Part shown: positions 3,001-6,000 of the stretch, one piece after another | How positions within the stretch are numbered: the stretch's first letter is position 1 | Layout: each line of letters begins with the position of its first letter | Origin: a virus | Taxonomy: Duplodnaviria > Heunggongvirae > Uroviricota > Caudoviricetes | Reading direction: 5' to 3' (one strand) | IMG/VR virus record: IMGVR_UViG_2703719355_000015 | Span: 1-9,274 of that record | Length of the DNA: 9,274 nucleotides | Position numbers: made by a program

Positions 3001-6000
3001 AGGAGGAGCAGCGAAGGCATACGAAAGCCCTGTTATACGAAATGCCTTGTTACGTCTGGCAAATACGCCAAAAGGTAGCACAGCATATGACAGAGCGATC
3101 AGTACGGTCACACAATCGCTCACCAGAGTCGCACAGGCATCACAAAAAGAAGCTCAATAACTGGCAGCCACGGATGGCTAATTTTTATTCTTTGATCTCG
3201 TCCACAGGGAAAGAAGAGCAATGGCAAGACAGGAAACAGAGAATAGATAACCTACCTCATATGGTGCGCCAAAAAAATTAGCTATTGATACGGGCAAAAA
3301 AGCCGAAGCGATCAGAATTGAAAGGCAAAAAATAAGCCCAGTAACATAGTTTATTAAACTCTTAAATGAGAAACGTTTTGCTTGATTTACGGTCTCAGCG
3401 AGTGATCGCTTAACGATGGATAAAAGCAAATAGATGGCGACAGTAGCTAATGCCCCTTTCCACCAGTCTGGATATAATTTTGCGACAATCAGCCCAAGGA
3501 AAACCATGATGACAGACTGAGTATTCACACCAACCTCCTTAGTTTTGCGCAGGATACCAGATGATACTTTATTGGTGGAGTGGTGTGTGAAAACGTGTCA
3601 ACGACAAACCATCCACAACTTGGACGAATGATTTAGCAAAAAGTGCTATTTTTGGTGTTTGGTGTCATAGAAACGTGAATAGCTTACTTTTCAACATTGC
3701 TTATGTTGTGAGTTCTAACGGTAACAGGGAGTGACTTAAGAAAGTTATACGCAGTAAAGCCAGCGGCAGTTTCCCCTCCCTGACTTGATATATGGATATT
3801 TAATTCAGTTGCGCCTTGAGATAATGCGGTGAGACAGTGGTTCTGAAGTTGCCCAACAGTGGCAGTGTTAACGGGGCATAAGAAATGAATTGTGTGCAGC
3901 ATTATTTATCATCCTTGCCATAAATCTTTTTAAGTGTCTCAAACACAACAGCCTTGAACTGCTCTGCCTGCTGATCAGCCAAGCGTTCAGCTTCGTCGCG
4001 ATAGCCAGTCACAGGCGATGGTTTTGATAGAGCATCTTGGACGATTTGTAACAACTCGGAGTTCATTGATCTCCCATTCGCCTCCGCCCTGAATTTTAAT
4101 TTCTCCCTTACTTCCAAAGGCATACGGAAGTTAAAGTGCGGATCGTCTCTAGCCATGCCATCACTCCAAGTTAGTATCTCTAACTTTCGTCTTTATTGTT
4201 GCTATACATGCATTTCAACTTCTCAACATCATGTTCAAGATCTATCAATCGTGATGCTATAGTTGCAAGGTCTAGTGCTTGAATGTGTTTATTTTTTTCG
4301 GTCCATGCTTCAAGTGCCGCGACCATCTCAGCATTTAATGAACGAGACTTAGCCTCAGCCAGTTCAATAAGACGTTCCTTTATCTCTACAGGAAGCCTCA
4401 GATTCACTTGAGGGTTTTTGTACTTACGATCAGACATCGGCACATCCTGAATAACTTTTTACCACAGGATATGTAGGTATCTATTGACTATCAATGCGTA
4501 CCTAAATACTATGTATGCGTACCACATACAGCGGAGGATGCAATGAAGGTAAAAACACTGCGTATGCCAGAGAAGTTAGAAAAAATCCTTGAAGAGAAAG
4601 CAAAGGAAGAGTGTCGATCGTTTAGCGCAGAAGTAATTAAACGGGTGCTGGACAGCTTGAAGAGAGAGGGGGTGATGGTATGAGTAAAGAATGTTGTTTC
4701 TGCGGCATTAGCGAATCAGACGCTGATCAAACATACATTTACTCTAAAGAAACAGGTCGGATGCTGTGTAGTGACTGCGTGTTGGACATCATAAGATACA
4801 AGCATCTTGGATGTTCTGCCAGCATTAGCAATATAGGTGAAGTATACGAAGGGAAAGATATAACTGATAGAGCAGAAAGTTGAAGCCCCAACTGCGGGAA
4901 CAGTCAGGGCTTCGGTATCGTAAAACCACGCATAGGAATTAACGACATGACGAGTGTAGCAATTGCAGAACATACAATCAACGTTCCATTCCACGGAACA
5001 AATCTCTTTTTGGTCAGCATTAACAATGAACCTTACGTTCCTATGAAACCCGTTGTAGAAGGTATGGGTATGGTTTGGGCTGCTCAATTTGTTAAATTAA
5101 AACAGAGATTTGTCAAAGGTATTTCGGAAATCGAAATACCTTCTGCTGGCGGTAAACAGTTAATGATATGCCTTGCCTTTCGTAAGTTTGCGGCTTGGCT
5201 TTCAAGCATTCAGCCAAACAAAGTCCGCCCTGAAATCCGCGACAAGGTAATCCAGTATCAGGAAGAGTGTGACGATGTGCTCTACGAGTACTGGACTAAA
5301 GGTCATGTAGTTAACCCACGCAAAGCTAAAAAGGCGTTGCCGGGTAAAATTACCACTGAACAGCAGGAAGCCATTAAACAACTCGTCATGAGTCGCGGTC
5401 AGTCTCTGCCAAAAGAAAAACAGGCTAAGGCGATGATCACCATGTGGTCGTCACTGAAATCCCATTTTGGATGTTCGTACAAAGAAATCAGTGAGGAGCA
5501 GTTTACCGAAGCACTATCACTTGCAGCTCGAGTTCCACTTGAAGGTGAGTTCATTGGCAAGTCGGAACATAATGAGATGAGTTGTTTTGATTGGAGGATG
5601 AATGTTCATAACCTGAACTCGGCGTGCATTCATCTTGATGCCATGTACAGAATATGGAGAGACGAAATGGAACCCGCTTTGCGATTGCTTGGCTCTCCGG
5701 TTGCGACCAGATTTTGCGGAAGAATTGCAGATTGCTATTCCGTAACTGCAAGCGTTAAGAAAAGTCTGGAGAATGCCGCAGGGCTGAAAGGCTTACAACC
5801 ATTTTAACTACCTGCACGAAAAGTGCAGGTCAATCATCAACGCAACGACCCAGCTTCGGCTGGGTTTTTTTATGCCCAAAATTCACCGTAGCCACGCTGC
5901 GGCGATTCCTTGCATCTGGAGCAAATTAAATGACAGACATTACAGCTAATGTGATTGTATCGATGCCTTCGCAACTCTTCACTATGGCGCGTTCTTTTAA

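Follow-up and report, generated by a model that had tools for sequence, protein, structure and literature searches.

What stands in the sieA position of a P22-like prophage when the gene found there is not sieA, and could its product do the same work? The question is raised by a 9,274-nucleotide (nt) stretch of Caudoviricetes DNA (positions 1 to 9,274 of IMG/VR record IMGVR_UViG_2703719355_000015; hereafter the window), which covers the end of the late operon in a P22-like prophage and carries on its minus strand, at 3178-3528, an open reading frame (ORF) for a small membrane protein of 116 amino acids (aa). It is now appreciated that the superinfection-exclusion protein SieA of P22, an inner-membrane protein of 162-164 aa, stops DNA injection by P22-like phages only, that its gene together with 85 bp of upstream DNA suffices for exclusion, that escape mutations map to gp16 and gp20, and that sieA occurs in 22 of 66 P22-like phages, in types A, B and C that are about 25% identical and have the motif FxRYPxEAxxFNK in common (PMC10883804, Leavitt et al. 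2024). SieA is the only characterised protein at the sieA locus. The initial annotation of the window had proposed the 116-aa product as a candidate exclusion factor. The reading favoured here, to which we give about an even chance, is that the protein would be a prophage-expressed inner-membrane analogue of SieA, not homologous to it, which blocks superinfecting P22-like genomes; position and predicted membrane location are what it builds on. It is favoured because the gene occupies the identical cassette, stands as an alternative allele to SieA-type genes, lies invariably beside gene 16, belongs to a set of slot genes biased towards the envelope, and has no housekeeping relative.

The location of the gene is central to this argument. 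As first described, it lies between the ejection-protein genes and the immunity genes, with a gene 16 homologue on one side and the mnt, arc, sar and ant genes of the immI region on the other. Like sieA, it runs antisense to the late operon of a P22-like prophage, in the interval from the gene 16 homologue to the gene 9 homologue, and its assignment to the sieA position holds in detail, since orientation, convergent gene 16 neighbour, leader, ribosome-binding site (RBS) and GTG start are all those of P22 sieA. The GTG-started frame (start codon at 3528-3526) with its strong RBS was likewise recovered. Judged by its conservation, the ORF is a real gene, because its length and N-terminus are kept in relatives down to 37% identity and the ratio of nonsynonymous to synonymous substitution rates (dN/dS) is 0.3-0.5; these values, obtained between two E. 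coli allele groups, indicate purifying but relaxed selection. The distant relatives have an ATG aligned to the GTG of the window and the N-terminal pattern MNxQ..II..L.L(I/V)V.KLYP in common, which favours the 116-aa reading over the RefSeq annotations of 109 and 129/130 aa. RefSeq start codons are inconsistent across the family, giving proteins of 109, 116 and 129/130 aa.

Upstream of the GTG, a perfect 9-nt Shine-Dalgarno (SD) sequence, TAAGGAGGT, lies at 3541-3533 and is followed by TGGT. The string AAGGAGGT (3540-3533) has a single exact occurrence in the window, and its spacer to the GTG is 4 nt, or 5 nt counted from the GGAGG core. The anti-SD duplex, at -12.7 kcal/mol, is the strongest of the 10 window genes tested (-2.8 to -12.4 for the others), so that the earlier ranking of this RBS among the best in the window, with a 5-nt spacer counted from the core, stands. 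The origin of this signal is revealed when the upstream regions of the window gene and P22 sieA are aligned with that of the Sf6 gp38-like orf129 from Salmonella phage Emek: in this three-way comparison TGGTATCCTG..CAAAACTAAGGAGGTTGGTGTG is identical or nearly so. Across leader, SD and GTG the 116-aa gene and P22 sieA match at 33 of 34 positions; the likeness of the three genes ends exactly at the start codon, and the ORFs beyond it are unrelated. The strong RBS of the 116-aa gene is thus the sieA-locus leader. Upstream of the gene, the window stays homologous to S88-type E. coli prophages as far as about 3565, and S88-type carriers have in common with the window just the 37-40 nt or so before the GTG, which argues that the conserved unit is the leader and not a promoter.

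A promoter-like element, TTCACA-19 nt-TATCAT, aligns with the annotated PsieA of P22, and if transcription began just behind this element, the conserved 37 nt would be a 5' untranslated region (UTR). A strict scan returned no canonical sigma-70 promoter directly upstream of the gene. Further upstream, a terminator-like hairpin would insulate the gene from transcription of mnt and of a ClpP-like remnant; it falls inside a 172-nt block with a 98% identical counterpart upstream of Emek orf129. A search of the leader for a structured regulatory RNA gave a fold no better than that of shuffled sequence, and an Rfam scan of the window gave sar as the sole match, with none in the leader. By analogy with sieA, the gene would be expected to be expressed in lysogens.

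How widely this leader is used was revealed by an IMG/VR scan for CAAAACTAAGGAGGTTGGTGTG, which gave at least 119 loci (L027-L145); translation from the GTG over all loci collected gave 128 complete ORFs of 62-164 aa. Among the loci listed, at least 12 mutually unrelated small ORF families stand behind the leader in P22-like (pro)phages: a family of 107-109 aa with an anchor and a coiled coil (27 of the 128), a gp38-like family of 129 aa with a signal peptide (25), the 116-aa family of the window gene (14), a 62-aa family (12), SieA (10), a 75-aa family (9), a second 109-aa family (8), a 106-aa family (6), families of 149, 99 and 140 aa (5 each) and one of 68 aa (2). An N-terminal hydrophobic segment, either transmembrane or a signal peptide, is present in 11 of the 12, which suggests that the slot is specialised for envelope proteins. 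Wherever the contig is long enough, a convergent ORF of gene 16 size (600-700 aa) lies within 0-63 nt of every slot family. Apart from SieA (PHROG 7745), the families belong to a PHROG of unknown function or to no PHROG, and the 116-aa family is among the latter.

Moreover, a second leader variant, ...ATGATGATTGCCATTCTAAACAA.GCTAAAGGG.GGTTGGTGTG, serves three different genes, namely the 116-aa gene in its 86%-identity allele (as in E. coli 042), a SieA-type gene at locus L147 (with the motif NRYPGEA) and a gp38-like gene at locus L149. Up to the GTG, the 042 and L147 genes have essentially the same upstream sequence over at least 120 nt, and the two genes adjoin the same gp16 C-terminal type. 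The common leader, together with this upstream identity, identifies the 116-aa gene as a cassette-type replacement of sieA. More generally, the sieA position appears, on sequence comparison, to behave as a swappable expression cassette with its junction exactly at the start codon. Rapid flux of the 'ant moron', as the stretch from gene 16 to gene 9 is called, was described in 2008, the prophages of APEC O1 and UTI89 included (PMC2629481); no paper was found in the literature that treats the sieA slot as a hotspot or a leader-sharing cassette, or that mentions the 116-aa family. A two-helix ORF of 62 aa lies behind the same leader in E. coli ETEC1738 (locus L146, about 3120-3310, minus strand), where RefSeq carries no annotation. 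In related prophages, variable cargo of the toxin-antitoxin or defence type lies directly upstream of the slot gene, a segment that has been lost from the window; among the genes there are those for a Panacea-domain protein, for a YafO toxin together with a hypothetical protein, and for a Doc toxin accompanied by PerC-family regulators. This cargo looks like a second variable site beside the sieA slot.

The association with gene 16 reaches further than the leader. At 70% identity or more, a word-indexed search gave 19 clusters, whose members come from E. coli, Salmonella, Edwardsiella and Yersinia and are all annotated 'hypothetical protein', and an exhaustive scan of 1.84 billion representatives with a profile hidden Markov model (HMM) gave seven clusters, of which just four were new (37-38% identity, 115-120 aa). 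For each of these four distant homologues, all metagenomic, the distance to a convergent gene 16 homologue (62-70% identity) is 17-23 nt; the leaders and the remaining neighbours are not the same, the gene 16 adjacency stays, and a gene 16 homologue is the invariant convergent neighbour in every context of the family examined. The short hairpin AGCCACGGATGGCT between the convergent stops has a stem of 4-5 bp (GCCA-TCCG-TGGC) and is followed by a T-run on the plus (gene 16) strand. Relatives whose proteins are 37% identical keep it with changes in both arms of the stem (GCCA/TGGC, ACCA/TGGT, TGCCA/TGGCA; loci compared: the window, L020, L022, L024, L026 and L146).

Among complete E. coli genomes, 228 of 5426 (about 4%) carry the gene, always on the chromosome, in two allele groups, one with 60 genomes (99% identity or more) and one with 167 (90-95%). 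The carriers include S88, APEC O1, ATCC 11775 and 042. By tblastn the gene is absent from 50,697 records of isolated phages, and two scans of the GTDB species-representative genomes gave no relative of the protein. The family is a narrow, uncharacterised and prophage-only one. In the IMG/VR sample, it has one and the same C-terminal type of gp16 beside it at 14 of 14 loci listed. An exclusive linkage of the family to this type is refuted by the E. coli genomes, 418 of which have the same type, with the next gene there being also SieA-type, gp38-like or that for the 62-aa protein. The linkage is therefore physical and not exclusive, and SieA and the 116-aa protein are true alternatives beside this gp16 type.

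The protein itself, of about 13 kDa, is very hydrophobic. The initial annotation had counted about three transmembrane helices; four are predicted instead, both by hydropathy (Kyte-Doolittle segments at residues 1-21, 24-44, 57-86 and 91-110) and by the helices of an AlphaFold (AF2) model (3-18, 22-47, 55-85 and 90-115), which was built on an 11-sequence alignment and has a low confidence, with a predicted local distance difference test (pLDDT) score of 66. SieA-like proteins have 3-4 inner-membrane helices, and the four predicted here are arranged in an architecture unlike that of SieA. A conserved KLYPDWW turn joins helices 1 and 2, with K17, L18, Y19 and P20 invariant in the family alignment; the loop at 40-56 holds five basic residues and one acidic residue, and the C-terminal tail, RSKNKN, is basic. 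This distribution of charge fits a topology with both termini inside (N-in/C-in). By the positive-inside rule, both termini and the loop at 40-56 would be cytoplasmic, and PDWWK and GAPYE would form short periplasmic turns.

No housekeeping homologue of the protein was found in the family databases or in the HMM scan of 1.84 billion representatives. Searches of Pfam, PHROG and NCBIfam gave sub-threshold noise only, the PADLOC-DB v2 defence models gave no match at E <= 0.1, the family HMM found nothing significant among PDB sequences, and Foldseek gave no significant fold match against BFVD (best E 0.84) or the PDB (best E 7).

According to the favoured reading, the protein would be expressed from the resident prophage, as sieA is, would insert into the inner membrane in the N-in/C-in orientation, and would there keep a superinfecting P22-like genome from crossing the membrane. 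The probable mode is interference, inside the bilayer, with the insertion or assembly of the ejection-protein conduit of gp7, gp20 and gp16, and by analogy with SieA the gene 16 product would be the candidate target class. Recognition would be helix-to-helix in the membrane or via the conserved KLYPDWW turn, because the protein has almost no extramembrane mass. A broader and more speculative proposal, which we put forward tentatively, is that the sieA leader and the 3' end of gene 16 form a cassette-exchange site for more than 12 unrelated small envelope proteins, each of which could block the conduit of rival P22-like phages in its own way, with the 116-aa protein as a new, non-homologous class of inner-membrane blocker of DNA entry that would work wholly by contacts inside the membrane with gp16, whose gene has remained its neighbour across deep divergence. 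Several observations weigh against an exclusion function. No sequence or profile similarity connects the protein to SieA, and PADLOC, Pfam, PHROGs, NCBIfam, the PDB and BFVD offer no match of another kind. The structure model, at its pLDDT of 66, is of low confidence. The promoter is a weak consensus match, and the sequence upstream of the 37-nt leader varies among carriers. The slot also hosts periplasmic families and one apparently cytoplasmic family, with functions unassigned, so that its occupants need not share an activity. Finally, the carrier prophages may be poorly inducible, as no isolated phage among the 50,697 records has the gene.

Given the common locus, it has to be considered whether the protein is a highly diverged SieA, a fourth 'type', and this is very unlikely. 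It does have the locus, the leader and a polytopic membrane protein in its favour, and a first hhalign comparison with SieA types A and B paired residues 52-105 with SieA residues 68-139 around an F-S-x5-N string, but that alignment had a probability of 1.1% and was gone when broader profiles were used on both sides (0.26%). BLASTP against P22 SieA gave no similarity (E 0.32), PHROG 7745 was not matched, whereas P22 SieA itself scores 9e-109 there, and the exhaustive HMM scan with the 116-aa family recovered no SieA. The family-defining C-terminal motif FxRYPxEAxxFNK, invariant in our own SieA alignments including HS1 type B and L147, is absent from the protein and from all 11 family members. 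These alignments were used because the Pfam copy searched lacked the SieA model PF26849, P22 SieA itself giving no match in it. The protein is also much smaller, as had been noted from the start, with 116 aa and no long cytoplasmic loop or tail against 162-164 aa in P22 SieA and 162-212 aa across the SieA types. Membership of the SieA family is ruled out by BLASTP, two rounds of profile-profile comparison and the missing motif, and the earlier suspicion that this is a different protein was correct. Still further from plausible is the suggestion that the protein and the product of the neighbouring ClpP-like ORF act jointly in exclusion or abortive infection, as a module of two genes, a partnership raised in the initial annotation and rejected here on comparative data. 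The two ORFs do lie on the same strand, 155 nt apart in the window, but the ClpP-like ORF (3684-3902) is a 72-aa remnant, matching residues 1-71 of an intact 178-aa gene in relatives. That intact gene follows mnt, with which it is co-transcribed, at least 1.2 kb from the 116-aa gene, and a YafO toxin pair or a Panacea-domain gene lies between them on the opposite strand; the ClpP-like gene is missing altogether from all distant relatives and from the 86%-identity allele group. In the window, the terminator-like hairpin (3627-3609) separates the two ORFs.

Two further explanations keep the protein in the membrane and give it another task. Lambda RexB is a four-helix membrane protein, and a membrane abortive-infection or toxic effector, that is, a holin-like or RexB-like pore that depolarises the infected cell, is suggested by the small four-helix design, by top structural neighbours that are holins (non-significant), by a weak Pfam match to Phage_holin_3_6 (the best holin match, at E 0.16 and below threshold) and by the toxin-antitoxin cargo (YafO, Panacea domain, Doc) that adjoins the gene in close relatives. 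We consider it improbable: all similarity scores are at chance level, with no significant sequence or fold match to holins or RexB in Pfam or by Foldseek against BFVD and the PDB; gene 16 alone is conserved beside the gene, with no sensor or partner gene; the cargo is variable and absent from distant relatives; and a pore-former would be toxic if it were strongly and constitutively translated from the prophage. We doubt to a similar degree that the protein is a lysogenic-conversion product without a part in exclusion, for example an immunity protein against a pore-forming bacteriocin or a host-fitness factor that has settled in a convenient cassette. Pore-forming colicin immunity proteins are of about 110-180 aa with 3-4 helices, which the size and topology of the protein resemble; the slot occupants are heterogeneous and their functions unassigned, and the gene is common in extraintestinal pathogenic (ExPEC) and avian pathogenic (APEC) E. 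coli lineages such as S88, APEC O1 and 042. Yet Pfam and NCBIfam hold no homologous immunity or host-protein family, the family is found solely beside gene 16 of P22-like prophages, and exclusion is the function of SieA, the sole occupant of the cassette that has been characterised.

Overall, the closest known system is P22 SieA, with its identical slot, orientation, convergent gene 16, leader, SD and GTG, as a predicted polytopic inner-membrane protein that is prophage-borne in Enterobacteriaceae. It differs in its three or four helices with a loop of about 48 residues and a C-terminal tail, whereas the 116-aa protein consists of four tightly packed helices with tiny loops. The other occupants of the slot (Sf6 gp38/Emek orf129-like, PHROG 2651; PHROGs 5962, 21338, 7294, 8100, 10450 and 19844) have the same leader and position, and most of them are small and envelope-directed, with functions unassigned. 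They are unrelated in sequence, and most consist of a single-pass anchor or a signal peptide with a soluble domain; unlike them, the 116-aa protein is almost wholly intramembrane and is without a PHROG or an isolated-phage representative. Lambda RexB and the colicin immunity proteins, of comparable size and helix count (3-4), act in the bilayer, either as a channel or by contacts between helices, but have no homology to the 116-aa protein, and no RexA-like partner or bacteriocin locus lies nearby. T4 Imm is a small inner-membrane protein that blocks phage DNA entry. HK97 gp15 is another such protein (cited in PMC10883804). Both are phage-encoded, are made by the resident or first-infecting phage and stop the genome from passing through the inner membrane, the same kind of activity as is proposed for the 116-aa protein, with no sequence relationship to it and with other phage groups, targets and topologies.

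If the exclusion function is true, the 116-aa family would be a new, non-homologous exclusion protein, and the presence in one cassette of a second, unrelated and much smaller blocker would provide an independent handle on the mechanism by which the conduit is blocked. The locus would then be a diversity hotspot for exclusion functions and not the home of one gene family. The family could further affect the susceptibility of ExPEC, APEC and enteroaggregative E. coli (EAEC) strains (S88, APEC O1, 042) to P22-like phages of the Lederbergvirus type. The string CAAAACTAAGGAGGTTGGTGTG offers a simple sequence tag for finding more candidate exclusion genes.

Table 1. Features of the window around the 116-aa gene, with the cargo upstream of the slot gene in related prophages (last three lines; positions in the loci named).
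Feature	Position	Strand	Evidence or remark
Gene 20-type ejection protein, C-terminal part	153-1148		
Gene 16 homologue (ejection / DNA-transfer protein)	1145-3160	+	PHROG 770, PHROG 29117
Short hairpin between convergent stops of gene 16 and 116-aa gene	3166-3179		overlaps TAG stop
116-aa membrane-protein gene	3178-3528	minus	GTG start, TAG stop
Conserved leader, probable 5' UTR, about 37 nt	3529-3565	minus	three-way and six-way alignments, IMG/VR census
Promoter-like element	3561-3591	minus	weak consensus match by eye; prediction
Terminator-like hairpin upstream of promoter-like element	3609-3627	minus	
ClpP-like fragment	3684-3902	minus	
mnt	3902-4156	minus	with Mnt C-terminal domain
Second Arc/Mnt-type gene, 87 aa	4180-4443	minus	Arc-like domain only
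arc	4543-4683		
Cys-rich ORF, 67 aa	4680-4883	+	CxxC...CxxC; PHROG 7150 (function unassigned)
sar antisense RNA	4878-4945	minus	Rfam, 84.6 bits
ant	4947-5807		
Tailspike gene	5930-7726		
Acyl_transf_3 O-acetylase-like gene	7797-8906	+	PHROG 3333 (O-acetyltransferase)
Upstream cargo, L001	8098-8547		
Upstream cargo, L002	7905-8929		
Upstream cargo, L150	7945-9428		

The remaining features of the window (Table 1) add some detail to its layout. The sar match indicates that the immI control region of the P22 type is intact, with sar sitting between the 67-aa Cys-rich ORF and ant. This ORF is coupled translationally to arc through an ATGA overlap, and its SD ranks second in strength within the window. 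On the other side of arc, mnt and the second Arc/Mnt-type gene stand in tandem as repressor genes, against just one gene of this kind at the same place in the related prophages L001 and L002. The acyltransferase gene that follows the tailspike occupies the place of gtrABC in P22 and is likely an O-antigen-modifying lysogenic conversion gene. The break in the ClpP-like gene, at about 3690-3700, coincides with the start of the 172-nt block of 98% identity to the region upstream of Emek orf129, and by our own reading of the alignment the remnant would end one residue before the position aligned to the active-site serine of ClpP.

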